In this document: positions 993-39,403 of the stretch, in pieces
Position numbering within the stretch: the stretch's first letter is position 1
How the letters are laid out: each line of letters opens with the position of its first letter
Assembly (NCBI GenBank): GCA_964521295.1
Contig: CAZFRF010000001.1
Span: 774,738 to 838,737 of the forward strand
Origin: an uncultured Gammaproteobacteria bacterium
GTDB taxonomy: Bacteria; Patescibacteriota; Microgenomatia; Levybacterales; UBA12049
Length of the DNA stretch: 64,000 nucleotides
Direction of reading: 5' to 3'
The notes under the pieces: model-generated
Seen by the model: the letters and a program-made list of their open reading frames with translations, nothing else
The model's database searches: none
What the model was told of the DNA's origin: nothing
Translations under genes and position numbers: made by a program

Positions 993-1858
993 AAATAATC
1001 GTATTAGGTAATGGCCAGTGGGGGAAAACTTTAGCATCTTTGCTTTCTGAAAATAAAAGGAATTATGAATTTTGGAAGCCAGGAGTAGATTTGCCTGATA
1101 ATTCAATTTTAGTAAATTGTTTGCCAGCCAATGTAATTAGAGATGTTTTAGTAACTCATGGTAAAAATCTTAAAAATGTCATTTTTATTAATGGCTCTAA
1201 GGGTGTTGAGCAGAAAACTCATAAGTTGCCTTTTGAAATAGTTACTGAAATCTTGGGAAATATAGACTATTTTACCTTGATTGGTCCTGGCTTTGCTAAA
1301 GAAATAATGGCTAAAATGCCTACTTTAGTTAATATTGGTTTTGTTAAAAAAACTAATGTTGAATTAATAAGAGGCTTATTTGAAACAGATTATTTCAGGG
1401 TAAAAATGGTAGAAGGAGTAAAAGCGCTAGAGCTTTCTTCTGCATTTAAAAACGTTTATGCAATTGCTTGTGGAATAGCTAGTGGATTAGGTTTTGAGTC
1501 TAATACTCAAACTAAGGTAATTTTAATTGCAATTGATGAATTTTATGCGTTAGCAAAGGCTTTAAATATTGAGGTTACAGAAGATATGTTGCCAGGAACA
1601 GTTGGAGATTTAATGTTAACCTGCAGCAGCGTTAATAGTAGAAATTTTAGATTTGGAAAAGGACTTGTTTCAAAAAATCATATAGATGTTTTAAGAGAAA
1701 TAGGGGAAACTGTAGAAGGTTATTCAACAATTAGTTCAGTGGGGTACTTTGAGAAAATATCCGGAGTAAATCTAAAATTAGCTAATTTTGTGTCTAGAAG
1801 TATAGTTAAGGAAACAGATATTAAGAATGAATTTTTAAAACTTTTACGAAATGTTTAG
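989..1858 (+). CDS. gpsA: NAD(P)H-dependent glycerol-3-phosphate dehydrogenase
   Basis: N-terminal Rossmann 'MKIIVLGNGQWG'; conserved blocks 'IGPGFAKEI', 'KNVYAIACGIASGLGF', 'GDLMLTCSSVNSRNFRFG', 'GETVEGY' match GpsA signature regions; 4-nt overlap with recF stop (operon). Confidence 0.85.
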   Translation: MKIIVLGNGQWGKTLASLLSENKRNYEFWKPGVDLPDNSILVNCLPANVIRDVLVTHGKNLKNVIFINGSKGVEQKTHKLPFEIVTEILGNIDYFTLIGPGFAKEIMAKMPTLVNIGFVKKTNVELIRGLFETDYFRVKMVEGVKALELSSAFKNVYAIACGIASGLGFESNTQTKVILIAIDEFYALAKALNIEVTEDMLPGTVGDLMLTCSSVNSRNFRFGKGLVSKNHIDVLREIGETVEGYSTISSVGYFEKISGVNLKLANFVSRSIVKETDIKNEFLKLLRNV

Positions 1859-2166
1859 GAGTTAAATTTTTCAGAAAGTCTAGATAGTTGATAAGTAACC
1901 AAGACTGCAAGAATTGTAACAATTACTGCATAAATAAGTAGGGAAATGATTCCGCTTCCTTGAGGTAAAAATGATTTAACATAGGAATTAACAAATTCTT
2001 GAATTAAGCTATTCCAGGCTAGGGCAGCAACTAGGCCAAAGCCACTGGTGGCTAGTGTTAACATTTGTTTCAGTAATTCTTTTTGAATTGACTTCTTTTC
2101 TATTGATTTCGTTCGGGAATTCTTCGGCATATTTGTTATAATACAACTAGTTAATCTTAATTTCAA
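1855..2166 (-). CDS. small hypothetical membrane protein (2 TM); true start may be internal Met (MPKNSRT...)
   Basis: ORF convergent with gpsA; two hydrophobic helices; no recognisable family. Confidence 0.4.
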   Translation of the reverse strand: MKLRLTSCIITNMPKNSRTKSIEKKSIQKELLKQMLTLATSGFGLVAALAWNSLIQEFVNSYVKSFLPQGSGIISLLIYAVIVTILAVLVTYQLSRLSEKFNS

Positions 2167-2170
2167 GGTT

Positions 2171-3214
2171 ATGTATATTCCTAAATTTTCAATTACAAGT
2201 AAGATACTTAAAAATATAGGTAGTATAGAGGCTTCAAAGGAAATTATTGATCACGCTCCACTTCTTCCGTATTTTGAAAAAGAATTCAGGCAATCAGCAA
2301 TGGTTAGGAGTGTGCATTATGGAACACATATTGAAGGTAATGAGTTGAATTTAACTCAAGCAGAAAAGGTGTTGATGGGGCAGGAGGTAGCGGGAAGAGA
2401 TAGGGATATTCAAGAAGTCATTAACTACAGAAAGGTTTTAGAATATTTATCTGCAGTAACAGGAGATGCAAAGATTACAGAAGAGACAATAAAAAAGATT
2501 CATGAGATTACAGTTGAAAAAATTTTAGCTGCAGAGCAAGCTGGGTTTTATAGACAAACCCAGGTGGTAATTAAAAATAGTCATACAGGTGAAGTTGCTT
2601 TTAGGCCACCACTTGCTATTGCCGTTCCATTCCAGATTAAGGAACTTTTGGCATTTATAGACAGCTCGCAAGAGCAAGATATTCATCCAATTTTGGAGAG
2701 CGGAATTGTTCATTATGAATTCGTCAGAATTCACCCTTTTGTTGATGGAAACGGAAGAGTCGCTAGGGCAATCGCAACATTAATCTTATATCTAAGAGGC
2801 TATGACATTAAAAAGTTTTTTGCCCTAGAAGAATATTTTGATAGAGACGCAATGGCATATTACGATGCATTACAAAGTGTTGAGAAAAAAGAAGGAGATT
2901 TAACAAATTGGCTAGAATATTTTACTTTGGGACTTGCTATTGAGCTGCAAAAAATTAGAGAAAAAGTTGAAAGTATATCAGTCGATGCAAGACTTAAAGA
3001 AAAGTTAGGCGGAGCACCAATTTTACTGACCCCTAGGCAAATAAAAATTATTGAATATATCCAAAAAGTAGGGTATCTTCAAAATCAAGCATTTGAAGGC
3101 CTATTTCCAATGATTTCTGAGGATACGATTCTTAATGAACTTAAGGGATTATTGACAGCAGGTTTAATAAAAAAACATGGGGTAACTAAGGGTGCAAAAT
3201 ATATAATGGCTTAA
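2171..3214 (+). CDS. Fic/DOC family protein (AMPylator-type) with C-terminal winged-helix region
   Basis: Canonical Fic motif 'HPFVDGNGRVARAIATLIL' (HPFx[D/E]GNGR). Confidence 0.85.
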   Translation: MYIPKFSITSKILKNIGSIEASKEIIDHAPLLPYFEKEFRQSAMVRSVHYGTHIEGNELNLTQAEKVLMGQEVAGRDRDIQEVINYRKVLEYLSAVTGDAKITEETIKKIHEITVEKILAAEQAGFYRQTQVVIKNSHTGEVAFRPPLAIAVPFQIKELLAFIDSSQEQDIHPILESGIVHYEFVRIHPFVDGNGRVARAIATLILYLRGYDIKKFFALEEYFDRDAMAYYDALQSVEKKEGDLTNWLEYFTLGLAIELQKIREKVESISVDARLKEKLGGAPILLTPRQIKIIEYIQKVGYLQNQAFEGLFPMISEDTILNELKGLLTAGLIKKHGVTKGAKYIMA

Positions 3215-3215
3215 T

Positions 3216-4937
3216 ATGAAATTTAATACATTAATTGAATATTTCGAAAAATTAGAACAAACCTCATCAAGGCTTTCTTTAATAGAAATTCTGGCTAGTC
3301 TTTTTGCTGAAACAAAGACTGAGGAAATAGAAAAAATTGTTTATTTAATCCAAGGAAGACTTGCTCCATTTTTTGTGCCTTTAGAGATTGGTATGGCAGA
3401 GAAAAATGTAGCAAAATCCGTAGCTGCGGCTTTTAATGTGAGCGCAGAAGAGGTTACTAAAGAATTTAATAAATTAGGAGATATGGGCTTAGCAACAGAG
3501 CATTTTGTTAAGAATACAAAAGTATCAGATATTTCTGTAGATGAAGTATTTAGAATTTTAACTGAAATCGCTAATACTAAAGGTGAGGGAACAGTTGAGA
3601 AAAGACAAACTCTTTTAGCCGATATTTTAAAAAAAGTTGATGCAAAATCGGCAAAACATTTAGTTAGAATTCCTTTAGGAAATGTAAGACTGGGAATTGG
3701 TGATCCGACTGTTTTGGATGCGCTCGCTACTGCAAAATTAGGAGATAAATCACAAAGAAAAGTTCTTGAAGGAGCATATAATAAAACTTCAGATCTAGGA
3801 CTTATTGCTAAAACATTATGGGCAAAAGGTCTTGCTGGAGTAGAAAAATTAGAAGTAAGAGTTGGAAGCCCAATCAGATCTGAACTTTGCGAGCGCTTGC
3901 CAAGTCCAGTAAAAGTAATTGAAAAAATGGGAGAGGTTGATGCGCAGTACAAGTATGATGGTTTTAGAGTTCAGATTCATAAAGATGGTAAAAACGTCAG
4001 GATCTTTTCTAGAAACTTAGAGGAAATGACTCATATGTTTCCAGAGTTAATTCAAGCTGCAATTGAAGAAATTGATGCTAAAACAGTAATTCTAGATGGG
4101 GAAGCTTTAGCATATAATCCAGAATCAGAGGAATTTTTACCTTTTCAAGAAACAACCAAAAGAAGAAGAAAGCATGGAATTGAAGAAATGGCAGCCAAGC
4201 TTCCATTAAAAGCTTTTATTTTTGACATTTTATTTAAGAATGATCAGTCACTTTTAGATAAGCCACTTTCTGAAAGAATGGATATTTTAGCTAAAACCAT
4301 TCAGTCAGATGGGGTACTTATTAAAAGTAAAAACCAAGTAATTAAAGAAGCAAAGCCTCTAGCGGTTATGCTTGAGGATGCAATCTCTAAGGGATTAGAA
4401 GGGGTTGTTATTAAAAAGCTAGAGAGTCCTTACGAAGCCGGTGCAAGGAATTTTAACTGGGTAAAGCTGAAAAGACACAGTAGTGGAGAATTAAATGACA
4501 CGATCGATTGTGTCATCCTAGGATATATTACAGGGAAAGGCAAAAGAGCAGCTTTCGGAGCAGGAGCTCTTTTAGTGGGAATATATGATAAAAAGTTAGA
4601 TGAATTTGTAACAGTTTCCAAAATTGGCACAGGGCTTACAGATGATGAATGGAGAGAGGTTCATAAGAGAGCTGATAAAATAAAAGTTGATCATAAGCCT
4701 GCAAGAGTAAGTTCAACAATTGTTCCTTCAGTTTGGATTAAGCCCGAAATAGTAATAGAAGTTTTAGCTGATGAAATTACCAGAAGCCCAATTCATACTG
4801 CTGGAAAAACAAATGAAGATCCAGGTTATGCATTGAGATTTCCAAGGCTCGTTTCATTTAGGGGTAATGATAAAAAAGCAGAGGATGCAACCACAACAGA
4901 AGAGTTAATTGAAATGTATCAAAATCAAGGTAAATAA
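3216..4937 (+). CDS. ATP-dependent DNA ligase (archaeal/eukaryotic Lig-type)
   Basis: Adenylation motif I 'KYDGFRVQIH' (KxDG), motif III 'LDGEALAY', motif IV 'EGVVIKK', OB-fold C-terminus; 573 aa. Confidence 0.85.
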   Translation: MKFNTLIEYFEKLEQTSSRLSLIEILASLFAETKTEEIEKIVYLIQGRLAPFFVPLEIGMAEKNVAKSVAAAFNVSAEEVTKEFNKLGDMGLATEHFVKNTKVSDISVDEVFRILTEIANTKGEGTVEKRQTLLADILKKVDAKSAKHLVRIPLGNVRLGIGDPTVLDALATAKLGDKSQRKVLEGAYNKTSDLGLIAKTLWAKGLAGVEKLEVRVGSPIRSELCERLPSPVKVIEKMGEVDAQYKYDGFRVQIHKDGKNVRIFSRNLEEMTHMFPELIQAAIEEIDAKTVILDGEALAYNPESEEFLPFQETTKRRRKHGIEEMAAKLPLKAFIFDILFKNDQSLLDKPLSERMDILAKTIQSDGVLIKSKNQVIKEAKPLAVMLEDAISKGLEGVVIKKLESPYEAGARNFNWVKLKRHSSGELNDTIDCVILGYITGKGKRAAFGAGALLVGIYDKKLDEFVTVSKIGTGLTDDEWREVHKRADKIKVDHKPARVSSTIVPSVWIKPEIVIEVLADEITRSPIHTAGKTNEDPGYALRFPRLVSFRGNDKKAEDATTTEELIEMYQNQGK

Positions 4938-4938
4938 T

Positions 4939-6276
4939 ATGGATTATCTATCAGACTTACATCTTCATTCTAAATACTCCAGAGCTGTATCTCCGAGTAT
5001 GAATTTAGACATAATGGCTAAATTTGCTAGGGAAAAAGGATTAAATCTACTTTCAATTTCAGATTTTACTCACCCTGTTTGGCTAAAAGAAGTCAAGGCC
5101 AAGCTTAAGGAAACGCATGAAGGAATTTATGAGCTAGCGGATGAAATAAGTTTTCCAAAACCAGTATATTTTTTATTTTCTACAGAAATTGCCAGCATTT
5201 ATAAGCAAGGAGGAAAATTAAGAAGAATTCATAATTTAATCTTTGCTCCTAATTTAGAAACTGTTGAAAAAATTAATGCAGAGCTTATTAAAAGAGGAGC
5301 GAATTTAAATGCAGATGGAAGACCAATTATTGGTTTATCTTCAAAAGCATTATTGGAATTAATTTTAGAGATAGATAAGAATTGCATGCTTATCCCATGC
5401 CATGTTTGGACTCCGCATTTTGGAGTATATGGTTCAAAGTCTGGGTTTGATTCTTTAGCTGAGTGCTTTGAAGATTTAGAAAAATATGTTTACGGAATTG
5501 AAACTGGAATTTCTTCAGATCCAGAAATGAACTGGAGGATTAAGGAGCTCGAAAAAAGATCAATTTTGTCATTTTCTGATGCTCATAGTCCAGCCAATAT
5601 GGCAAGAGAAGCAACAACTTTTTCTTTATCTGAGATAACATATTCAAATATTAAAAAGGCAATCGAAAGAAGAGGTGGAGCAGAAAACAGAATCAGTTAT
5701 ACAGTTGAATTTTATCCGGAAGAAGGGAAATATCATTTTTCAGGACATCGAAACTGCGGCGTTAGCTTGTCTCCTTCAGAAATAGTTAATAATGGCAATA
5801 TTTGTCCAGTTTGCAGCAGGGAATTAACCGAGGGTGTTGCAATCAGAATAGATCAGTTAGCTGGTCCAAATTATTATAAAGATTACGAAGAAAAAGAAAG
5901 CCCTCTGGGGATTAAATGGTATACAGATTTAGCTAAACATCATCCGCCATATGTGAAATTAGTAAGGTTGATTCAAATTGTCGCCGAGAGTATGGGTTCA
6001 ACTGTAACTAGTCAGAAAAGTATAAATGTGTATACAAATCTAATGCAAGAATTTGGCGTTGAATTAGATATTTTACTTAAAACGAGCTTAGCTGATATTT
6101 CAAGAGTTGCAGGTTCGAGAATTGCTGAGGGAGTTGGAAAAGTTAGGAGAGGGGAGATTGAAATAAGGCCAGGATTTGATGGTGAATACGGTAAGGTTAA
6201 AATCTTTTCTGACGATAAAACTGGTAAATTAAACAAGGAAAATAATATAAGCTCACAGATTGGCATTGACTTTTAA
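4939..6276 (+). CDS. PHP-domain protein with Zn-finger, endonuclease Q (TIGR00375)-like
   Basis: PHP motif 'DLHLHSKYSRA' at N-terminus, internal 'CPVCS' zinc-finger-like Cys pair; start moved to ATG 4939 (in frame) to avoid overlap with ligase. Confidence 0.5.
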   Translation: MDYLSDLHLHSKYSRAVSPSMNLDIMAKFAREKGLNLLSISDFTHPVWLKEVKAKLKETHEGIYELADEISFPKPVYFLFSTEIASIYKQGGKLRRIHNLIFAPNLETVEKINAELIKRGANLNADGRPIIGLSSKALLELILEIDKNCMLIPCHVWTPHFGVYGSKSGFDSLAECFEDLEKYVYGIETGISSDPEMNWRIKELEKRSILSFSDAHSPANMAREATTFSLSEITYSNIKKAIERRGGAENRISYTVEFYPEEGKYHFSGHRNCGVSLSPSEIVNNGNICPVCSRELTEGVAIRIDQLAGPNYYKDYEEKESPLGIKWYTDLAKHHPPYVKLVRLIQIVAESMGSTVTSQKSINVYTNLMQEFGVELDILLKTSLADISRVAGSRIAEGVGKVRRGEIEIRPGFDGEYGKVKIFSDDKTGKLNKENNISSQIGIDF

Positions 6277-8284: not shown

Positions 8285-8550
8285 CAGTTAGGATTTTTGT
8301 TTTAGGTTTTGTTCAAGGGGTAGGATTTAGGCGCTTTATTAGAAAAAACGCCCAGAAGTTAGGTATTAAGGGTTGGGTTAGAAATACATCAGATGGAAGA
8401 GTGGAAATAGTTGCTCAAGGAGCTAAAGAGCAAATTGAGGAACTTAAAAAGATTGCAGAGAAGGGAACTATCTTTTCTGATGTAAAAGGAATTGTTGTAG
8501 ATAATTTAGAAGAGTCTGAGGTTTTTGAAGGTTTTGAATTACGATTTTGA
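8281..8550 (+). CDS. acyP: acylphosphatase
   Basis: 'VLGFVQGVGFRRF' and 'GWVRNTSDGRVEIVAQG' acylphosphatase signatures 1 and 2; 89 aa. Confidence 0.8.
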   Translation: MTVRIFVLGFVQGVGFRRFIRKNAQKLGIKGWVRNTSDGRVEIVAQGAKEQIEELKKIAEKGTIFSDVKGIVVDNLEESEVFEGFELRF

Positions 8551-9654
8551 TTTATTAGAGAAAAGATAAGCTGCAATAAAAGTTACAATTGGTACAGCTA
8601 AGAGTAACCCCATGCTTCCTGCAATAGTTTTAATTATCTCATCTGCCAGGATTTCATTGTTAAAGATTACCCAGTAAGGTATTTTACTAGGGTTAAGCGC
8701 AAGGAAAATAAAGATAGCGAACGCACTTCCTGCATAGGCTAAGATAAGGGTATTAACCAAAGAGGCAATGTGTTCTTTTCCAACTTTAAAACCTTTGTCA
8801 AAAAGCGTAACTAAGTCATACTTAGGATTTGCCTCTTTTAGTTCCTGAATGGTTGCTGCTTGAGTCGTAGTTATATCATTCAATGCTCCTAGCGTGCCAA
8901 TGATAATTCCGCTCAAAAATAAACCTTTAATATTGATAAAGCTAGTTTGGCCAAATTGGAGCATAAATGAGTCTTCGTCTCCTAAGCCGGTTATAGAATT
9001 TAAGTTCATTGCAAGAATTGCAAAACCTGCTGTTAAAAATAATGCAATAAGTGTTGAAAAAAGCGCAACTGTTGTTTTCTTAGATACTCCATGCGCTAAA
9101 TAAATCGAAGTTGTAAGAATAAAGATAGAGCCAATTAGAGTATATTGTAGGGGATCATTGCCTTTGAGGATGTTTGGGATTATAAAGACTATAATTGTAC
9201 CAAGACTTACAAGCATGCCTAGGATTGAGCCAAGACCTTTAAGACCAGCTATCAAAACTACGGTTAGGAAAAATATGCCTATGAAGAAAAAGAGCATATT
9301 TAATCTGTAAAAGTCATAAACAGAATATTGAGTTTGTCCATTGGGGTAGGTGGTTTTTGCAACAACTATTGTTTGCCCTTTTTTAATTAATTGATCTTTA
9401 TTTATTTGAGTTTGACTTCCATTTTGAATAACAGTAAATTTTCCAGATTTCGAGCCATCGTTTATTTTTACTCTTAGAGTTTGAAAATAAGCAGTAAAGT
9501 TTTCTGTCTTTTTCTGTCCCTCATCAATGATTTCAACAACATTTGCAATGTAAAAAATTTGTTTTGGCGCTTGAAATTGTTTCTCTTGCGCAAAAGAGGG
9601 TTTGACAGTGATTAAGAGAAGGAGAAGGGCAAGTAGTAGGACTTTTATTTTCAT
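8539..9654 (-). CDS. YibE/F-like polytopic membrane protein with N-terminal signal and periplasmic domain
   Basis: Signal peptide 'MKIKVLLLALLLLLITVKPSFA', ~100-aa soluble domain then 6-7 TM helices; family call from memory. Confidence 0.4.
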   Translation of the reverse strand: MKIKVLLLALLLLLITVKPSFAQEKQFQAPKQIFYIANVVEIIDEGQKKTENFTAYFQTLRVKINDGSKSGKFTVIQNGSQTQINKDQLIKKGQTIVVAKTTYPNGQTQYSVYDFYRLNMLFFFIGIFFLTVVLIAGLKGLGSILGMLVSLGTIIVFIIPNILKGNDPLQYTLIGSIFILTTSIYLAHGVSKKTTVALFSTLIALFLTAGFAILAMNLNSITGLGDEDSFMLQFGQTSFINIKGLFLSGIIIGTLGALNDITTTQAATIQELKEANPKYDLVTLFDKGFKVGKEHIASLVNTLILAYAGSAFAIFIFLALNPSKIPYWVIFNNEILADEIIKTIAGSMGLLLAVPIVTFIAAYLFSNKSKS

Positions 9655-9684: not shown

Positions 9685-9733
9685 TTGACAAATGCAAATA
9701 ACTTGCATATAATATGCAAATAATTCGCATTTG
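9685..9733 (+). promoter_or_regulatory. consensus sigma70 promoter (TTGACA-17-TATAAT) embedded in a 45-bp imperfect palindrome (candidate repressor operator)
   Basis: -35 TTGACA 9685-9690, 17-nt spacer, -10 TATAAT 9708-9713; arms 'caaatgcaaataacttgcatat' / 'atatgcaaataattcgcatttg' (19/22 complementary) centred on the -10 and overlapping ATG 9731. Confidence 0.55.
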
Positions 9734-10645
9734 TATATGATTAAAACAGAATTAAGTTCAGTATTAAAAGATACAGCAGGTTTGGCTCTTCAGGGCGGAA
9801 TTTTTGCGCCTGAGACTCCTTCTGGAATAGATCTATCTCCATCTTTACAGGTAATGGAAAAAAGATTAGTTGATGGTTTAAGAGAAAATGGTAGAGCAGT
9901 ATATGGATTAGATAATCCAGAGGGAATGGATTTTACAATGGCATTAGGTCCTTATGCAAAATTAATTTTGGTTTTTAAGCAACGCAGGGAAACTTTACCA
10001 ACTCCCGTGACAGCATTTGGAACTATTGCTCCAGACTCAAATTATTTATCAGGTCAATTAAGATTAGCATTTATGGCAAGATATAGTGGAGGAGCATTTC
10101 AGGTTCCCTGGGAATATGATCCAGATAATACATTAGTTAAGCCTTCTACAATTGATACTTATTTATCTGCGGTTAATGAATTAGGCTCAGTAGGAGACCA
10201 TGAGCCCTCTCGTCCAGTTTCAGTTGCAGATCCTAGGCATTTACTTACGGCAATGAGTGAGTTTAATTTAGGATCAGTTGCATCTTCGCAGATTAACTCT
10301 GTAGATGTAACTCAAAGGCCACATGTAGGCGATGTGTGGGAAGCGAATCGTGGAATGTTTCCAATTATTTCAGCTCAAGAAATGGGTAATTTAGAAAACG
10401 ATTTAGTATGGGCGCCATTTACAGTTACAAAAAAATATTCTAGATCTGATAGTTTGCCATTTGGAGTCATGTTAAAACCAGAAAATCTTGATTTAGAAGC
10501 ATTAGGTAGGGGAAGAATTGTACCAGCTAAAGCAAATATTCCTGGTTCTTTGGAGATGATTCAGCAATTAGGTTTTGCAACTCTTCTTACCAAGGGCAAT
10601 GCCGTTGATAATTTTAAAAGAATCCTAGAAAGGAGAGTTGTTTAA
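9731..10645 (+). CDS. hypothetical protein (304 aa), Ala/Gly/Pro-rich, no family recognised
   Basis: First gene of cassette; composition and GC (~38-40%) above flanking genes; acidic, Lys-poor. Confidence 0.55.
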   Translation: MYMIKTELSSVLKDTAGLALQGGIFAPETPSGIDLSPSLQVMEKRLVDGLRENGRAVYGLDNPEGMDFTMALGPYAKLILVFKQRRETLPTPVTAFGTIAPDSNYLSGQLRLAFMARYSGGAFQVPWEYDPDNTLVKPSTIDTYLSAVNELGSVGDHEPSRPVSVADPRHLLTAMSEFNLGSVASSQINSVDVTQRPHVGDVWEANRGMFPIISAQEMGNLENDLVWAPFTVTKKYSRSDSLPFGVMLKPENLDLEALGRGRIVPAKANIPGSLEMIQQLGFATLLTKGNAVDNFKRILERRVV

Positions 10646-11130
10646 TGATGCCTTATGTTGAGGCTTTTACTCCTCAGAAAAGAATTGAACCAATTGTTCC
10701 CCAGGCTACTCAATCAGAATGGGAGCTTGGTGGAGCCGTTTTTCAGTTTGGCTCTATGGAGGAAATGCTTTCTGCCGCTCAACAGCCAATAGTAGAAGTA
10801 GGAGAGGTGAAATTAGAGCCTTCTTTAAATATTGAGGATGATTTCTCCCGTGCTCGTAGAATAATTAATGCAAATTTAGGCGTCTTTACTCAATTGCAAA
10901 GTTCAATTATGATGCGTGCTCAACAATTACAGATTGCTTGTCATCCTCATAATTCATCAATGACAACTATGACATCTCCAATGAGTAATTTAGGAAACGG
11001 TGAATTTGCTAGCGGCGCATTCCTAGGAAATTTAGGAGGAGAAAAACAAACTCATTCTACTGAGCAGCATGGTCACTGTAGTTCATGCGGAGCAGATTTA
11101 AAAGGTGGAAAATGTCCAAAATGTTCATAA
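10645..11130 (+). CDS. hypothetical protein (161 aa) with C-terminal zinc-ribbon
   Basis: Start overlaps upstream stop (ATGATG/TAATG coupling); C-terminus 'CSSCGADLKGGKCPKCS'. Confidence 0.5.
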   Translation: MMPYVEAFTPQKRIEPIVPQATQSEWELGGAVFQFGSMEEMLSAAQQPIVEVGEVKLEPSLNIEDDFSRARRIINANLGVFTQLQSSIMMRAQQLQIACHPHNSSMTTMTSPMSNLGNGEFASGAFLGNLGGEKQTHSTEQHGHCSSCGADLKGGKCPKCS

Positions 11131-11143
11131 AGGAGGTGATTAA

Positions 11144-11308
11144 GTGAAATTTTACAATGTCAAAACAAGACAATCCGTTGAAATTGATGACTCTAAAGTC
11201 CAGGTCATAACAATGAAAAACGGAAAGTTAGCAGCTAAAGCTGAAGATAATGGAATTGGTTTATTCAAAATATTAAGCAGAGAAGACGCTGCAAGACTCA
11301 ACAAGTAA
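11144..11308 (+). CDS. unannotated 54-aa protein (GTG start), SH3-barrel/Sul7d-like pattern
   Basis: Perfect SD 'AAGGAGGTGA' then GTG at 11144; ORF VKFYNVKTRQSVEIDDSKVQVITMKNGKLAAKAEDNGIGLFKILSREDAARLNK*; followed by terminator; not in supplied ORF track (track has an antisense ORF 11152..11376 instead). Confidence 0.45.
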   Translation: MKFYNVKTRQSVEIDDSKVQVITMKNGKLAAKAEDNGIGLFKILSREDAARLNK

Positions 11309-11330
11309 TTGATCTGTATTTTACGCAATA

Positions 11331-11362
11331 CATGGGAGACCTTTGGTCTCCCATGGTGTTTG
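11331..11362 (+). terminator. rho-independent terminator 'catgggagacc-tttg-ggtctcccatg' + T-rich tail
   Basis: 11-bp perfect GC-rich stem 11331-11355 followed by 'gtgtttgt'. Confidence 0.65.
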
Positions 11363-11388
11363 TAAAAAGTTTGCATTAAATTTACAAT

Positions 11389-11820
11389 ATGATAATATCA
11401 GCTAGAATGAAAAATATTAAAGATTTAGGAATTAAATCAACTAACTCTAGAGTTGCAGTTTTAAACTTTTTAGAAAAAGCAGAGAAGCCTTACGATGTCC
11501 AGGCAATAATTGAATATTTAAGAGCTTCAGGATTGTCAACTGATCAAGCAACTGTTTATAGAATTTTAGACCTATTTTATAAAAAGGGAATAGTACAAAA
11601 AATTGAATTAGGAGAAGGTAAGTACAGATATGAAAAAACCCAAGCTCATCATCATCACTTAATCTGTACTAATTGTGGAAGCATAGAGGATGTAAGTGGG
11701 GATTTCGTTGCTGATATAGAAGAAAATATAAAAAAGAATAAGGGATTTGAAGTTAAAAGTCATTCATTGGAATTTTTTGGATTATGTAAAAATTGTCAAT
11801 CTCATTCTTTATCTTCGTAA
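11389..11820 (+). CDS. Fur-family metal-responsive transcriptional regulator (Fur/Zur/PerR)
   Basis: wHTH N-domain, 'HHHHLICTNCGSIEDV' and C-terminal 'CKNC' metal sites. Confidence 0.8.
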   Translation: MIISARMKNIKDLGIKSTNSRVAVLNFLEKAEKPYDVQAIIEYLRASGLSTDQATVYRILDLFYKKGIVQKIELGEGKYRYEKTQAHHHHLICTNCGSIEDVSGDFVADIEENIKKNKGFEVKSHSLEFFGLCKNCQSHSLSS

Positions 11821-11963
11821 CTGCAATTTTTTAATTTATATTTTAGCTTAAAATTTTACCCTCAAAACACATATAAGAATAAAAGAGATTTTGTTTGATT
11901 TTAGGTTTTAATTATTTGGGGGATATAACAGTTTCGGTGTTAATCTCTCTTCTTGAGCATTAA

Positions 11964-12752
11964 TTATTCTTTTAAAGCTGCTTCTATTTGTGCTTTGATT
12001 TGAGAGTAGGGAACTGCCCCGGTAATTTGAACTCCATTGACAAAGGTTGCTGGTGTTCCTGTTACTCCTGCGGCCTGTCCTTCTGATAAGTCTTTATCAA
12101 TGTTTGCTTGATATTTCCTATTTGTTAAGCAACTGTTAAAGCTAGTAGTATCCATGCCTAAGGTTCCTGCTACTTGAGTTAATTTATCAACGGTATACAT
12201 AGATATATCGCTTTCTGGTGGTTGATTTTCATAGAAGTATTTATGCATTTCCCAGAATTTACCTTGTTCGTTTGCACATTCCGCTGCGTTAGCTGCGACT
12301 ACAGAAGGATCACCTAAGAAAGCAAATTGTCTAAAATATAAGACTGCTTTTCCTGCATCAACATACTCTTTAATAAATTGTTGCTCTGATTCGGTATATA
12401 GTTGTTCGCAGAATGGACATCTGAAATCTGCAAATACAATAATTTTAACTTTAGCATTTGGATCTCCCTTGGCTGGTAGGTGACCGACTGCAACATCAAC
12501 TTTAGCGGCTGGAGCTTGTTGTTCTCCAGAGCCATCATCGAGAGCAGTTGGAGCTGTATTTGTTCCTAGGTTACCGGTTCCCTTTTCTAAATATTGAACT
12601 TTAGTAATTAATACTCCAAGTAAAAAAGCAGCGATAACTAATAGTACAGCGAGTATCGGTGTGTAGTTTTTGGGCCTATAAGAAAGAGCAGAGGATGCAG
12701 CTACTGTTGTAGTTTTTTTGATTGATTTGAGTATAGATTTGCCCTTTGGCAT
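11964..12752 (-). CDS. membrane-anchored DsbA-like thiol:disulfide oxidoreductase
   Basis: N-terminal TM, thioredoxin fold with 'FRCPFCEQ' CxxC active site. Confidence 0.75.
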   Translation of the reverse strand: MPKGKSILKSIKKTTTVAASSALSYRPKNYTPILAVLLVIAAFLLGVLITKVQYLEKGTGNLGTNTAPTALDDGSGEQQAPAAKVDVAVGHLPAKGDPNAKVKIIVFADFRCPFCEQLYTESEQQFIKEYVDAGKAVLYFRQFAFLGDPSVVAANAAECANEQGKFWEMHKYFYENQPPESDISMYTVDKLTQVAGTLGMDTTSFNSCLTNRKYQANIDKDLSEGQAAGVTGTPATFVNGVQITGAVPYSQIKAQIEAALKE

Positions 12753-21222: not shown

Positions 21223-21295
21223 TGGGCCCGAAGTTTACCCGGTTGAACGCCTCATTTGCAATGAGGAGGTAGGGAGTTCGACTCTCCTCGGGTCC
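21223..21295 (+). tRNA. tRNA-Ala (anticodon UGC)
   Basis: Manual fold: acceptor gggcccg/cgggtcc with G3:U70 Ala identity pair, D-stem gttt/gaac, anticodon stem cctca/tgagg, loop 'tttgcaa' (anticodon tgc), T-arm gggag-ttcgact-ctcct; CCA not encoded. Confidence 0.85.
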
Positions 21296-21389
21296 ACAAG
21301 TGTTTTATTTATTTGCGCGTAGCGCTTTCCAGTATGCTCTGGACGCTACCCGCAAATAAGTAAGAGTTGGCTCTTTAAAAAGTGAAGAG

Positions 21390-24640
<3,251 letters not shown>

Positions 24641-24698
24641 ATTAAATTTTTCTTATCTTCACCTTTTAGAGGGCCAAATTTACTTAATTGAAATTTTT

Positions 24699-24812
24699 CC
24701 CGGTGTTTTTAGCGAAGCGGCACCACCTCTTCCCATTCCGAACAGAGAAGTGAAACGCTTCAGCGCCTACGATACTGAGCATGGGCTCGTGGACAATAGG
24801 TCAATGCCGGGA
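24699..24812 (+). rRNA. rrf: 5S ribosomal RNA
   Basis: 'ccaccucuucccauuccgaacagagaagugaaacgcuucagcgccuacgauacug' 5S loop B/C-helix III consensus; helix I cccggug/...gccggg; T-run after. Confidence 0.8.
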
Positions 24813-24842: not shown

Positions 24843-24871
24843 TTGACAAATTAGCCTCAAAAGACTATAAT
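24843..24871 (+). promoter_or_regulatory. perfect consensus promoter TTGACA-17-TATAAT, 8 nt upstream of ATG 24880 (leaderless)
   Basis: TTGACA 24843-24848; TATAAT 24866-24871. Confidence 0.5.
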
Positions 24872-35098: not shown

Positions 35099-36142
35099 TT
35101 ATCTTCTCATTCGTTTTTTAATTTCTTTGTTGATATAGAATCTAATAATAAATCGAGCGACAAAGAAGAAAATAATTAGGCCAATAAGCAGGGTTATTAT
35201 TACTTTGTAGGGTATTACCCAAAAAGTAATGCTTTGCTCGATTGGAATATCTCTTTTACCATTATCATAAACCAATAAGAGATTGGCAGTATATTTACCA
35301 ATTCTAAAGCTTGTTAATTTATTCCAATTGATAGTCAGTTTTTCTAGTGCTTTTCCATTCTTATCTAACTTTATTTGTCCATCTTCTTTTAAGGGTTCTT
35401 TAACTATAAATCCGTCAAACCAGCTAGCAGTGAGATCTCGTCTGGTTTCTGGAATGATGTTAGCTGCTGTTTGATTAACATCTAAAATACCAATATTGTC
35501 GTTATTGCCACTGGTAATAAAAATATTTCCTCTAGGTCTAACATGAACATTGCCAGTGTTTTCAAGTTTAATATTGAAATTAATAGGTAAGTATTCATTA
35601 ATATAATTAGGTGTTGAGAAGTTAAGTATCTTGACTTCGGCTTTCGCTCCATTTTTTCTAACATTTAAAAGGATTGGTACAGCAGCCGCTCCTGTTATTT
35701 TAGTTCCAACTTGATTTAATTTATCATTGTTTTCTTGGGTAAAGTTAACTGCAAAGTAGTATCCATAGGCTGCTGTCTTAGGTACTTCAATGGAAAAGGG
35801 TACATCTGTCCATTCCAAGGGTTTTGCAACAAAGGTTTTCTCCTTAAACTTAATCCAAGACAAGCTATTGTCATCGTTTTCATCTTTAATTACTAAATCT
35901 CCATTGTCATCTCCTGTTAGTTTCTTAACTTCAAGCTTTATTGACAAAGGATTGCTTGTATTATTCCTTACTCTAATCTTGTCAGAAACAGTACTTCCAG
36001 GATTTGCAGACAAGTCAAAGAAAACAGGCGAGACTGTTACATCATAGTTAGGAGATTGTTGGGCGAAAGAATATTTAGCTCCAAATATGAAAACTAGAGT
36101 AAGGGAAATTAGAAATAATCCTGAAAATAAGGTTTTCTTCAT
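35099..36142 (-). CDS. DUF916/CscA-like cell-surface protein, paralog 2
   Basis: Signal peptide, 141 aa identical to paralog 3, C-terminal TM 'IITLLIGLIIFFFVARFIIRFYINKEIKKRMRR'. Confidence 0.55.
   Translation of the reverse strand: MKKTLFSGLFLISLTLVFIFGAKYSFAQQSPNYDVTVSPVFFDLSANPGSTVSDKIRVRNNTSNPLSIKLEVKKLTGDDNGDLVIKDENDDNSLSWIKFKEKTFVAKPLEWTDVPFSIEVPKTAAYGYYFAVNFTQENNDKLNQVGTKITGAAAVPILLNVRKNGAKAEVKILNFSTPNYINEYLPINFNIKLENTGNVHVRPRGNIFITSGNNDNIGILDVNQTAANIIPETRRDLTASWFDGFIVKEPLKEDGQIKLDKNGKALEKLTINWNKLTSFRIGKYTANLLLVYDNGKRDIPIEQSITFWVIPYKVIITLLIGLIIFFFVARFIIRFYINKEIKKRMRR
35642..36069. repeat. 428-bp perfect direct repeat, copy A (within paralog 2)
   Basis: 100% identical to 36677..37106; offset ~1036 bp; identical antisense ORFs 35790..36047 and 36827..37084 in the track are a by-product. 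Confidence 0.9.
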
Positions 36143-37185
36143 TTTTTGAATATCTTTATTATTCTCTTTATAAGGTTTTTAATTGTGTTAGCAAAGCCTA
36201 AGAAAGCAAAAACTACAAAGGCAATAGCAATTAAAACAACCTTCCAGGGAAAAACAAAGAAGCTGGTTTCGCTTTGGAAAGGAATGTCTCTGGTATTAGT
36301 ACTGATTACAAGAAGCGATGTGGCAGTATATTTACCAATTCTTAAGTCTAAGATCTTATCAAATTTAATTTTAAGTGTAGTCTGAGGTTTTCCGTTCTTA
36401 TCTAACTTTATTTGCCCATCTTCCATCTTGGGCTCTTCGGTAATAAAGGAATCATTCCAAATTGACTCAAACGCCTTTTTTGTATTTGGTAAAACTGTTC
36501 CTTGAGTACTGTTGACATCTAGAATAGCCACTTGTCTGCCTAAGAAGTCTCTAATAAAAATATTCCCTCTGGGTTTAACATGAACATTGCCAGTATTTTG
36601 AAAAACTGTAGTTAGGCTTACTGGTAAGTATTCGTAAAAACCTTTTGTTGCTGTAAAACTTTTAACATTTCCTTCGAATTTCGCTCCATTTTTTCTAACA
36701 TTTAAAAGGATTGGTACAGCAGCCGCTCCTGTTATTTTAGTTCCAACTTGATTTAATTTATCATTGTTTTCTTGGGTAAAGTTAACTGCAAAGTAGTATC
36801 CATAGGCTGCTGTCTTAGGTACTTCAATGGAAAAGGGTACATCTGTCCATTCCAAGGGTTTTGCAACAAAGGTTTTCTCCTTAAACTTAATCCAAGACAA
36901 GCTATTGTCATCGTTTTCATCTTTAATTACTAAATCTCCATTGTCATCTCCTGTTAGTTTCTTAACTTCAAGCTTTATTGACAAAGGATTGCTTGTATTA
37001 TTCCTTACTCTAATCTTGTCAGAAACAGTACTTCCAGGATTTGCAGACAAGTCAAAGAAAACAGGCGAGACTGTTACATCATAGTTAGGAGATTGTTGGG
37101 CGAAAGTAGATACTAAAGGGATAAAAACAAAAAAACCCACTAAAAGGCTTAGGGGCAGCAGTAATTTTTTTAACCTCAAATTCAT
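36139..37185 (-). CDS. DUF916/CscA-like cell-surface protein, paralog 3
   Basis: Start overlaps stop of paralog 2 (ATGA-type coupling); same mature N-terminus 'AQQSPNYDVTVSPVFFDLSANPGS...'. Confidence 0.55.
   Translation of the reverse strand: MNLRLKKLLLPLSLLVGFFVFIPLVSTFAQQSPNYDVTVSPVFFDLSANPGSTVSDKIRVRNNTSNPLSIKLEVKKLTGDDNGDLVIKDENDDNSLSWIKFKEKTFVAKPLEWTDVPFSIEVPKTAAYGYYFAVNFTQENNDKLNQVGTKITGAAAVPILLNVRKNGAKFEGNVKSFTATKGFYEYLPVSLTTVFQNTGNVHVKPRGNIFIRDFLGRQVAILDVNSTQGTVLPNTKKAFESIWNDSFITEEPKMEDGQIKLDKNGKPQTTLKIKFDKILDLRIGKYTATSLLVISTNTRDIPFQSETSFFVFPWKVVLIAIAFVVFAFLGFANTIKNLIKRIIKIFKK
36677..37106. repeat. 428-bp perfect direct repeat, copy B (within paralog 3)
   Basis: See copy A. Confidence 0.9.
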
Positions 37186-37193
37186 GATAGATC

Positions 37194-38312
37194 CTAGAAT
37201 GATCCGGCAGCAACGACTGTAAGTGTATCGCTATAGTCATTTGCTGCAGATTGGGTAGCAGCAACTGATGCTCTTACATTTAACGTAACGGTTGTTCCTG
37301 ACTGGCTTCCTCCTAGGCTTGCAACTTGTCTAAATTGTGTATCAATATGTCCAACAGTAGAAGCGCTTCCTTGATATCCTGCAGCAATTGTTGGAGTATT
37401 CGTTCCAGGTTGAGCGTCTAATCCATAACCACTAGTTGTTCCATTGGTTGTTAAGGTTCCAATTTGAGGATATGCTCCTAGACTAAAGATTTGCGCATTA
37501 GCAGTTGGGGAATATAGTCCATTCCAGTTAGTTCCTTTTACCCAAGATACAAAGCCATTCCTAGCGTTAGTTGAAACTGTTTGCGTAACAGTTCCAGATG
37601 AGATTGCAGTTGTTGAAATAGAGCCTAAGGCAACTGAGTTAGCAGATAGAGAGAAAGTCATAGTTGCGGCAACAGATGCTGTAACTGTAATTTGATCTGC
37701 TCCAGAAGATACAACTGAAGTTGCCCAGTCTAATGTATCAACGTATGGTGTTCCTCCTTGGGTTTTTAATGTACCAGTTTTATCATTTCCAGCTGAACCG
37801 ACAGTAGAGGAGGCTCCTGCAAAGTTAAAGCAATAGAAGGTTCCAGTTGATAGATCTGTGGTTGGGAAGGTAACATTAAGTCCATTAACGTTTGAAGCAG
37901 TATTAATTCCGGGCCAGGCAGTTGCTGCTCCACCACCAACTGGATCAGTTGGCAGATTAGTAGTTGTTACAGTCCAGTTAGATGCAGTGGAAGAAATGGT
38001 CCAACCTTGTGGGAATGTTATTACTGTGCCAGTCTCTGTTCCTGAAGTTGATGTTTTAAGACAAGCTGTTCCGGAAATAGCAGATCCAGTTGCTAATCTA
38101 TCAAATCTAACAAAACCTTCTGTAATAGTTGCATTGGCTTTTCCTGGAGTAAATAAAGGGTAGAGAATAAGTAAAAGTAAGGATAAGTTTAAGACTAAAC
38201 TCAAAATGTTATTCTTTTCTTTTAAATTGTTCACCTTAATATTTTGGGCAATTTTAGATAAGTCCATAAAATAATATACTTCTAGCAAATCATATTCATA
38301 AACTCTTGTCAA
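37194..38312 (-). CDS. Thr/Ser/Gly-rich secreted surface protein with conserved C-terminal motif (...NDYSDTLTVVAAGSF); probable start at internal Met (MDLSKIAQ..., ~38267)
   Basis: Signal-anchor 'ILSLVLNLSLLLLILYPLF'; N-domain paralogous to N-domain of 48874..51708 gene; C-terminus shared with 38330..39403. Confidence 0.5.
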   Translation of the reverse strand: MTRVYEYDLLEVYYFMDLSKIAQNIKVNNLKEKNNILSLVLNLSLLLLILYPLFTPGKANATITEGFVRFDRLATGSAISGTACLKTSTSGTETGTVITFPQGWTISSTASNWTVTTTNLPTDPVGGGAATAWPGINTASNVNGLNVTFPTTDLSTGTFYCFNFAGASSTVGSAGNDKTGTLKTQGGTPYVDTLDWATSVVSSGADQITVTASVAATMTFSLSANSVALGSISTTAISSGTVTQTVSTNARNGFVSWVKGTNWNGLYSPTANAQIFSLGAYPQIGTLTTNGTTSGYGLDAQPGTNTPTIAAGYQGSASTVGHIDTQFRQVASLGGSQSGTTVTLNVRASVAATQSAANDYSDTLTVVAAGSF

Positions 38313-38329
38313 TAGTATTGTTGAGCTAT

Positions 38330-39403
38330 TTAGAATGAACCCGTTGCTATAACAGTTAAAATATCACTATAGTCATTTGCTGAAGGAGTAGTGTTTTTAA
38401 CTTTGGCTTTTAATTCAAATGAAGCTTGTCCATTAGTTACTGGTGCAGAAGTGGAATCTGCTATCGGTCTTTTACTGGTGTCGATTACGCCAACATTGTC
38501 ACTTGCTCCATTATAGGGAGATAAAAGTTCCATGGGTCCGCCTGAAGTTTGAGCTACTGTTGTTCCTCTGGCTCCGTAGCCCTCAAGGGCTGCGGAAAGA
38601 TCAGTAGAGGAGCTACTGATGTTATAGTTACTTGCAGTTGTGCTTTTTAACCCATTATTTGTACCATAAAGATATATTAAGCCGCCGTTTGTAGCATTTG
38701 TGGTAATTGTGACATTTACTTTATCGGAAGACGTTGTAACAGACCCGGCTGTTAAGTTGCCTATGTTAACAGAAAATGGAGGAGAAATAAGACTAGTAGT
38801 GGTTAAGCTGAATGTAAAGCTAGGGTTTACGGTTGCCGAAGATGCAATCGGAGAATATTTACTTTGAGTATATGTTCCATTTCTGGCTGTTACCCTAGCA
38901 TAATAGGTAGTTCCTGGATAAAGTCCTATTAAGGTAAAGCCGCTTCCTGATCCCCATGCACTATATGTTTGCCAAGCAGGGCTTTGCCCCAAGGTATTAT
39001 CTGCCTGTACAAAAAACGTATCAGATGCAAAGTCAGCTGATCCCGATGATATTTGAATTGCAAAGGTTGAATCAGAAGAATTGTTAGCATTGTTTATAGT
39101 TAGACTAAGTTTGTTATAGTAATTTGAAGGGTTACTGAAAGTTGGCATTCCTGGAGTATTAGCCTGAAGAGTGTTGGTTAATCCTGCTCCCAAAATAAAA
39201 TTCGTCGACGAGGCAGAGGCAGTGTCTACTTCTCCTGATGAGCCCTGAAATAAGAAATTTTCTGAACTTGAAGTTGCAACACCTCCAGAGCCAAAACCAT
39301 ATTCAAGTAATTGATAATTTGTGCTTGTTGGTCCAGCTAGGGCAATAGGAGAAAATGCAAAATAACTTAAACTTAAGGCTAATAAAATTAATTTCTTATT
39401 CAT
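38330..39403 (-). CDS. Thr/Ser-rich secreted surface protein with same C-terminal motif (...NDYSDILTVIATGSF)
   Basis: Signal peptide 'MNKKLILLALSLSYFAFSPIALA'; fibronectin-like 'YYARVTARNGTYTQSKYSP' segment. Confidence 0.5.
   Translation of the reverse strand: MNKKLILLALSLSYFAFSPIALAGPTSTNYQLLEYGFGSGGVATSSSENFLFQGSSGEVDTASASSTNFILGAGLTNTLQANTPGMPTFSNPSNYYNKLSLTINNANNSSDSTFAIQISSGSADFASDTFFVQADNTLGQSPAWQTYSAWGSGSGFTLIGLYPGTTYYARVTARNGTYTQSKYSPIASSATVNPSFTFSLTTTSLISPPFSVNIGNLTAGSVTTSSDKVNVTITTNATNGGLIYLYGTNNGLKSTTASNYNISSSSTDLSAALEGYGARGTTVAQTSGGPMELLSPYNGASDNVGVIDTSKRPIADSTSAPVTNGQASFELKAKVKNTTPSANDYSDILTVIATGSF

Follow-up and report, generated by a model that had tools for sequence, protein, structure and literature searches.

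A conserved tandem operator and a linked Fur-family gene suggest a metal-starvation operon in an uncultured small-genome bacterium

We examined a compact three-gene cassette (positions 9685–11362) in a 64-kb stretch of low-GC DNA from an uncultured small-genome bacterium (contig CAZFRF010000001.1; the entire 64,000-nucleotide stretch is referred to below as 'the window', and positions are counted from its first nucleotide). The cassette is encoded on the plus strand and consists of a promoter, three open reading frames (genes A, B and C, encoding proteins of 302, 161 and 54 amino acids, respectively) and an intrinsic terminator (11331–11362). It is flanked upstream by a divergently oriented gene encoding a YibE/F-family membrane protein (8539–9654, minus strand; Pfam YibE_F, 7e-66), with which it shares an 82-bp control region, and downstream, directly after the terminator, by a gene encoding a Fur-family metalloregulator (11389–11820, plus strand; Pfam FUR, 5.4e-29; 137 amino acids from the likely start at ATG 11407). 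The terminator comprises an 11-bp stem (11331–11355), seven pairs of which are GC, followed by a T-rich tail; its hairpin has a predicted stability of −26.3 kcal/mol (z = −5.7), in agreement with the strong terminator noted in an initial annotation made from the sequence alone, and it is identical in the related loci L001 and L002 (related loci are identified by such numbers throughout).

The cassette promoter (9685–9713, plus strand) matches the sigma-70-type consensus at 12 of 12 positions, with TTGACA at 9685–9690 and TATAAT at 9708–9713 separated by a 17-nucleotide spacer; this element had been correctly recognized at the outset. It is one of two perfect TTGACA-N17-TATAAT copies in the window. 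Six copies are found when up to one mismatch is allowed, as compared to 1.07 expected, and the organism therefore appears to use promoters of this type. The promoter is embedded in a 47-bp composite inverted repeat (9688–9734), the arms of which (9688–9710 and 9712–9734) are 23 nucleotides each, lie 1 nucleotide apart and are 87% complementary. The palindrome had previously been given as 45 bp with arms matching at 19 of 22 positions; its presence is upheld, while its dimensions are revised. It is the only repeat of its kind in the window, and no comparable repeat was found in any of 20 Markov simulations.

The 47-bp repeat can be broken down into a self-palindromic 17-mer that occurs twice in direct orientation at a distance of 22 bp, such that the longer inverted repeat results from two palindromic candidate operators standing side by side. 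The core described in the initial annotation ('ttgcatat-a-atatgcaa') is the junction between these two neighboring palindromes and includes the −10 box. Operator 1 (ATGCAAATAACTTGCAT, 9692–9708; half-sites TGCAA and TTGCA) fills the spacer between the −35 and −10 elements. Operator 2 (ATGCAAATAATTCGCAT, 9714–9730) begins immediately after the −10 box, spans the expected transcription start, and stops 6 nucleotides before the ATG of gene A. The expected leader of gene A is only about 16 nucleotides in length and lacks a Shine-Dalgarno sequence; genes B and C have good ones. The Fur-family gene has a third copy, with one mismatch, in its own promoter region (operator 3, TGTAAAAAGTTTGCA, 11361–11375); the counterpart of this site in L001 is perfect (TGCAAAAAGTTTGCA). 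Alignment of 28 sites gave the consensus ATGCAAC-N3-GTTGCAT (in full, a-T-G-C-A-A-(c/a)-n-n-A-(G)-T-T-G-C-A-T). The number of such sites within the window alone is not significant (6 matches with up to one mismatch, as compared to 4.1 expected); the evidence for the operators is instead their position and their conservation across species.

We inspected the genomic contexts of ten gene A homologues (L001/L002, L011, L012, L013, L014, L015, L016, L019 and L020), the protein products of which range from 89% down to 24% identity. The layout TTGACA-nn-TGCAA-N5-TTGCA-TATAnT-(2–4)-TGCAA-N5-TTGCA lies upstream of all ten (in a looser variant in L020), with the TTGACA and TATAnT boxes at matching positions and the control region usually abutting the ATG. 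The co-occurrence of palindrome and cassette in other genomes, which had been suggested as a check, was thus found in every homologue inspected, and the proposed architecture of a repressed, inducible operon is borne out by retention of the operator pair with the cassette across these distant relatives. The position of operator 1 is kept in L001, L011–L016, L019 and L020, as well as in two loci (L005 and L007) described below. The second operator is found 22–24 bp from the first and ends 0–6 nucleotides before the start codon in 8 of the 10 loci; in the two exceptions it lies about 80 nucleotides upstream of the ATG (L011) or is displaced (L020). This abutment of the second operator and the ATG in most homologous loci implies that gene A homologues may be translated from near-leaderless mRNAs. 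Since unconstrained intergenic DNA would be randomized at 24–45% protein identity, we conclude that the control region is under purifying selection on a putative binding site.

Gene A (9737–10645, plus strand) starts at ATG 9737, as in its database entry (P0001) and in all of its homologues. The three-gene organization initially described is therefore retained, with a first protein of 302 residues in place of 304. That protein is only mildly acidic (pI 5.4), and its combined content of alanine, glycine and proline is unremarkable (22.8%); the initial description of it as acidic and rich in those residues is not upheld. It contains exactly three histidines and zero cysteines. Residues H168, H196 and D199 never vary within the family, and more than 90% of sequences retain H155 (alignment A4), with H196 and D199 positioned on one helix as an H-x-x-D motif. 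An AF2 model of the protein is confident (pLDDT 89.9, pTM 0.89) and produced no convincing fold match in the PDB or BFVD, and the sequence has no match in Pfam, PHROG, NCBIfam or PADLOC. Gene B (10645–11130, plus strand) is translationally coupled to gene A, with its ATG overlapping the gene A stop codon (TAATG). Its product has a variable N-terminus, a conserved amphipathic helix (DFxRARxII..N..F) and an invariant C-terminal motif, HCxxCxxD-x5-CxxC (alignment A8).

Both proteins belong to small orphan families. A word-indexed search of 5.8 billion proteins returned one other cluster for each. When 1.84 billion cluster representatives were scanned exhaustively with HMMER, 25 relatives of gene A emerged, down to 24% identity; none was found in 2.9 million viral contigs. 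No homology of A or B to a curated family or a solved structure was detected (Pfam over 25 and 7 members, respectively, NCBIfam, and profiles against PDB sequences), which agrees with the earlier statement that the cassette proteins match no recognized family. An obligate gene B-type partner of 161–201 residues follows every gene A homologue for which downstream DNA is available (for the L012 partner, BLASTP 2e-18 against gene B). Given the conserved histidine and aspartate residues in A and the histidine, four cysteines and aspartate in the tail of B, we tentatively suggest that the two proteins could form a cytoplasmic metal-handling pair.

Gene C (11144–11308, plus strand) starts with GTG, is preceded by the Shine-Dalgarno sequence AGGAGGTGA (its quality had been noted in the initial annotation) and encodes a basic protein (pI 9.7) that is predicted to form a small beta-barrel followed by a C-terminal helix. 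Its family comprises 77 clusters, with named members from Daviesbacteria and Levyibacteriota. The family pattern, Y-N-V-K-T-R...T-M-K-N-G-K-x-A-A-K...G...F-K-I-L, parallels that of DUF5679 (Pfam PF18930), a four-cysteine zinc ribbon of approximately 40 residues with the pattern Y-C-V-K-C-K...K-N-G-x-x-A-x-x-G-x-C-x-x-C-G-T...I-L. The two share the elements Y-x-[VL]-K, KNG..A.K and G...[KR]IL, whereas in gene C all four cysteines are replaced (by N5 and T8 in the first knuckle, with the second knuckle shortened by 2 residues) and an extra C-terminal helix is added. Comparison of the gene C family (alignment A6) with two Pfam-verified DUF5679 proteins, one from a phage and the other from a Leptolinea plasmid, using hhalign gave a probability of 92.3% (E = 5.4e-7) over 46 columns that span the whole domain. 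Restoring the four cysteines to gene C produced scores of 42.6 or 31.9 bits against the Pfam gathering threshold of 27, and none of 9 shuffled sequences with cysteines at the same positions scored against DUF5679.

Because the native sequence has no Pfam DUF5679 match at E ≤ 1 and thus falls below that gathering threshold, we class gene C as a divergent homologue of DUF5679, as judged by sequence comparison, and not as a member of the Pfam family. The loss of the ligands is a property of the family as a whole: the four ligand positions are free of cysteine in each of the 22 members that alignment A3 displays, the most distant included, and across all 77 members position 5 is an invariant asparagine and position 8 a nearly invariant threonine. 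Gene C also resembles the small SH3-like chromatin proteins of the Cren7/Sso7d type, in shape only; the score is weak, the identity is 14%, and the phylogenetic origin is different.

The Fur-family protein contains HHHH-LICxxCG and C-terminal CxxC motifs. Its orthologues in related loci are 39–48% identical to it and are the sole regulators that recur there. The gene adjoins the cassette in the window, L001, L012, L014, L016 and L020, and the 54-amino acid gene in L007. In L001/L002 the cassette is followed by a fur-ZIP operon. In L012 it is followed by a second promoter copy, the 54-amino acid gene and then fur-znuA-znuC-znuB; in L014 it is convergent with a YibE/F gene, a 57-amino acid gene and fur, with a ZIP gene next door. 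The order is fur, cassette and a 53-amino acid gene in L016, and fur, cassette and YibE/F in L020. Two further loci were reached by looking up relatives of the 54-amino acid protein alone, and these also proved to be operator-bearing neighborhoods with Fur, ZIP or YibE/F genes: L005 (fur-ZIP-NAS, then the 54-amino acid gene and YibE/F) and L007 (YibE/F divergent from an ATPase-SDR-54-amino acid operon, then fur; SDR, short-chain dehydrogenase). In L001, L005 and L012 a Fur-family orthologue is thus the first gene of a fur-ZIP or fur-znuABC operon, with ZIP in one operon with fur in L001 and L005.

The operator is found upstream of every one of these related operons. It precedes the Fur-family gene itself in the window (11361), L001 (6144), L005 and L012, including the fur-znuABC operon of L012 (site 5908) and the fur-ZIP-NAS operon of L005 (sites 1858 and 1880). 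In L014 it also precedes the ZIP gene (site 9351), in the ZIP/YibE/F divergent region, and the 57-amino acid gene; elsewhere it precedes the 54-amino acid gene in L005 and L012 and the ATPase-SDR-54-amino acid operon in L007. The genomic linkage to zinc-uptake genes, like the architecture of the control region and its conservation, is a direct observation, and the presence of operator 3 upstream of the Fur-family gene implies that this gene may be autoregulated.

A YibE/F gene adjoins the operator, the Fur-family gene or cassette genes in six loci (the window; L005, 4191–5255; L007, 989–2122; L014, 8148–9299; L015, 1829–2908; L020, 6489–7595), either transcribed away from the regulated genes or sharing an operon with them. 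In the window, a weak minus-strand promoter (9737–9709) overlaps the operators. The YibE/F protein is thus probably a co-regulated member of the same regulon, and is possibly a metal transporter; nothing relevant on YibE/F and zinc was found in the literature searched.

Several details of the related loci are worth recording. In L012 the promoter and both operators are duplicated almost exactly (3640–3690 and 5320–5370); the second copy lies approximately 200 nucleotides upstream of the 54-amino acid gene, with a leader that contains a possible 49-codon reading frame (MSDTKIPFVLNHW...). The L005 operon (1858–3788) is from a complete 842-kb genome resembling those of the candidate phyla radiation (CPR) and has an extra operator (site 2979) between ZIP and NAS; the NAS gene bears a weak similarity to CntL (NCBIfam 9e-9), which hints at synthesis of an opine- or nicotianamine-type metallophore. 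In L007 (2185–4683) a MinD/CooC-like P-loop ATPase and an SDR replace the 302- and 161-residue pair between the operator pair and the 54-amino acid gene, the product of which is 87% identical to that of gene C. Because this slot holds different genes in L007, the regulated locus has swappable cargo. Two other relatives of gene C were found in less complete surroundings: that in L008 is near ZnuB/ZnuC-type genes with a half-site only, and L021 (5001–5444) encodes a distant 58-residue variant beside a 70-residue tandem paralogue (MIEFYNVKKREK...), with no operator and no metal genes nearby. Not every member of the gene C family therefore belongs to the regulon.

These observations suggest that the cassette is very probably a repressed operon under the control of a Fur-family protein. 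We further consider it likely that it is a metal-starvation operon, that its repressor is the protein encoded immediately downstream, and that the metal is most probably zinc. Our assignments of the operator-binding protein, of the signal metal and of a biochemical function for A and B are interpretations of sequence data, and lead to the following model. When metal is plentiful, metallated repressor dimers would occupy both 17-bp operators; with one of these in the promoter spacer and the other extending over the transcription start towards the start codon, RNA polymerase would be blocked at what is otherwise a very strong promoter. The divergent YibE/F promoter would probably be blocked as well, and operator 3 would provide autoregulation of the repressor. 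When metal becomes scarce, the repressor would leave and the promoter would fire. Gene C would then substitute, without binding zinc itself, for a zinc-ribbon protein and so spare or free the metal, in the manner of the C-minus ribosomal paralogues of known Zur regulons, while the cysteine-rich tail of gene B might capture metal or deliver it to the histidine/aspartate site of gene A.

The proposed architecture matches the published mechanism of Zur. Zur boxes lie across −35 and −10 elements and so exclude RNA polymerase, and the genes under Zur control encode zinc transporters, chaperones and paralogues that do not bind zinc (PMC8000910); in B. subtilis, a Zur dimer binds an inverted repeat that extends over elements of a sigma-A promoter (PMC4324032). 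The closest known systems are the Zur regulons with C-minus paralogues (B. subtilis rpmEB/ytiA, rpsNB/yhzA and yciC; mycobacterial AltRP; Streptomyces), which also have a Fur-family repressor gene beside zinc-uptake genes and a palindromic operator over a sigma-70-type promoter (PMC8000910, PMC4324032, PMC5912738), and which likewise combine transporters (ZIP, ZnuABC) with a cysteine-less ribbon protein and accessory, putative metal-handling proteins. The system described here differs in that its operator is a tandem 7-3-7 palindrome (ATGCAAC-N3-GTTGCAT) rather than an AT-rich 7-1-7 or 9-1-9 Zur box, its cysteine-less paralogue is derived from DUF5679 rather than from a ribosomal protein, its accessory proteins are an orphan pair rather than COG0523 GTPases, and its regulator lacks the Zur-type sensing cysteine. 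Genes A and B may occupy the same niche as the COG0523 metallochaperones (ZigA/YciC/ZagA), in which a cytoplasmic, Cys/His-bearing accessory protein is induced with zinc importers (PMC2770081). Assignment of either protein to COG0523/G3E was rejected, as neither they nor their homologues have a P-loop GTPase (CobW) match in Pfam or NCBIfam, and no solved structure convincingly matches A in fold.

The main alternative to zinc, which we consider unlikely, leaves the repression architecture unchanged but makes the repressor a Fur-, Mur- or PerR-type sensor of iron, manganese or peroxide, to which the cassette would then respond. The regulator scores higher against the NCBIfam models for PerR (97.9 bits) and Fur (95.9) than against that for E. 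coli-type Zur (51.8), and the PDB entries closest to it in sequence are Fur proteins. All of these scores are far below the equivalog cut-offs, however, making the subtype calls unreliable. The Zur proteins of Bacillus, Mycobacterium and Streptomyces have an Asp/Cys/His/His sensing site (visible in the M. tuberculosis, S. coelicolor and B. subtilis structures), with the cysteine a few residues before an HxH motif. None of the 7 regulator orthologues has a cysteine before the HHHH motif, so that this ligand set is absent; the corresponding region instead contains glutamate ('RYE...HHHH'). ZIP and TroA-type transporters and nicotianamine-like chelators, moreover, can carry iron or manganese. The solute-binding protein of the L012 fur operon argues the other way, being closest to B. 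subtilis YcdH (7e-63) and AdcA (2e-58) and much less similar to manganese and iron proteins (1e-31 or weaker). It also retains a histidine at the third ligand position (SHAAF), where cluster A-I binding proteins for manganese and iron carry glutamate, and is therefore of the zinc type as judged by its sequence. A DsbA-like gene, a thioredoxin gene and a thioredoxin reductase gene just downstream in the window would fit this alternative, but no operator precedes the thioredoxin or thioredoxin reductase genes and such neighbors are not conserved in L005, L007, L012, L016 or L020. Loss of a four-cysteine ribbon is, finally, a hallmark of zinc-sparing regulons (PMC8000910). On the strength of the zinc-type binding protein, the ZIP and CntL-like genes and the cysteine-less ribbon protein, zinc is the likely signal, and the regulator is quite likely to be 'Zur-like by regulon content'.

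In addition to the score profile and ligand set of the regulator, several points weigh against a zinc-starvation operon. We infer binding of the regulator to the operators from co-localization only, and the 7-3-7 operator is unlike any published Zur, Fur or PerR box known to us. No cysteine-containing DUF5679 paralogue, for which gene C might substitute, is present in the 64-kb window or in the related loci that were fetched, and some members of the gene C family lack a full operator (L008 and L021). A cell short of zinc would not be expected to make a protein with a four-cysteine motif, such as that of gene B, unless this protein served as a scavenger or chaperone of high affinity. The window itself lacks the ZIP gene of its close relative L001. 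In another reading, A and B would be a peptide-maturation system, in which A cuts or modifies the His/Cys-rich tail of a precursor, B, to yield a ribosomally made zincophore; we regard this as quite improbable. The initial suggestion of a horizontally acquired defence or stress module, read as one unrelated to metal homeostasis, appears very improbable. The proteins are orphans, A and B have a narrow taxonomic spread (25 cluster representatives), and L007 carries different cargo between the operators and the 54-amino acid gene, all of which might be expected of such an island. In contrast, no PADLOC-DB family matches any of the three proteins at E ≤ 1, leaving no known anti-phage system as a candidate; there is no PHROG match and no relative of gene A in viral contigs, and the DNA on either side of the cassette contains neither an integrase nor repeats nor a tRNA. 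The conserved neighbors are always the metal-homeostasis genes (Fur, ZIP or Znu, YibE/F) and the 54-amino acid gene.

The composition of the cassette is likewise not anomalous, contrary to the initial claim that its GC content differs from that of its flanks. Its GC content (37.4%, against a background of 34.3 ± 2.6%) is reached by 14% of equal-sized windows, and 21% of such windows deviate as strongly in tetranucleotide usage, so that both measures fall within the normal spread. The locus is, in addition, syntenic with and 89–95% identical to that of L001 (89% for gene A), which speaks against horizontal acquisition. The idea of a stress module survives in spirit, with metal (most likely zinc) limitation as the stress, and with a sensor immediately downstream that had not previously been connected to the cassette. 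The other early proposal, that A is an encapsulin- or capsid-like shell with B and C as cargo, was prompted only by how large A is and by the small genes transcribed with it; it is effectively refuted, since the confident model of A shows no HK97 fold and has no convincing match in the PDB or among viral proteins.

Some features of the wider region are noted for completeness. The ZIP gene of L001 (6567–7319) overlaps the end of fur and has no counterpart in the window (11820–11964), so that approximately 750 bp containing it were recently gained or lost between the two. The L001 contig (L010/L001, CAZIOR010000018.1) is labelled Gammaproteobacteria and is nevertheless syntenic with, and approximately 90% identical to, the window; that bin label is probably wrong. 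At 21224–24812 of the window the order is tRNA, 23S rRNA and 5S rRNA, with no 16S gene upstream, and the 23S match spans 3245 nucleotides as compared to a 2925-nucleotide model, which suggests insertions of about 300 nucleotides. The second perfect TTGACA-N17-TATAAT element of the window (24843–24871) comes immediately after the 5S gene. Direct repeats at 35284–36922 and 37195–38385, approximately 1037–1136 bp apart and up to 92% identical over 300 nucleotides, are probably tandem paralogous genes.

The regulation described here is of a known kind, that of Fur/Zur-type regulons which answer metal starvation and include a zinc-sparing paralogue; what is new is the operator, the A-B pair and the derivation of the paralogue from DUF5679. 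No paper addressing both Patescibacteria/CPR and a Zur regulon, and no functional characterization of DUF5679, was found in the literature searched. It is possible, although we hold this as a doubtful extension, that A and B are a structurally novel cytoplasmic zinc-handling machinery (a chaperone, a scavenger or a metal-swap enzyme) of Microgenomates-type small-genome bacteria, and that DUF5679 represents an abundant zinc-holding pool that is replaced under starvation by its cysteine-less 54-residue paralogue. If so, the 'C+/C−' switch would extend beyond ribosomal proteins, and DUF5679 would gain its first functional context. The YibE/F membrane proteins emerge as candidate members of the same regulon, and the A-B pair, which combines ligand-like conservation with a confidently predicted fold that has no solved relative, is a target for structural and metal-binding work. 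The tandem ATGCAAC-N3-GTTGCAT motif would allow a metal regulon to be read directly from the genomes of uncultured small-genome, CPR-like bacteria, and a metal-regulated, cysteine-less paralogue would offer the first physiological handle on the widespread DUF5679 family.

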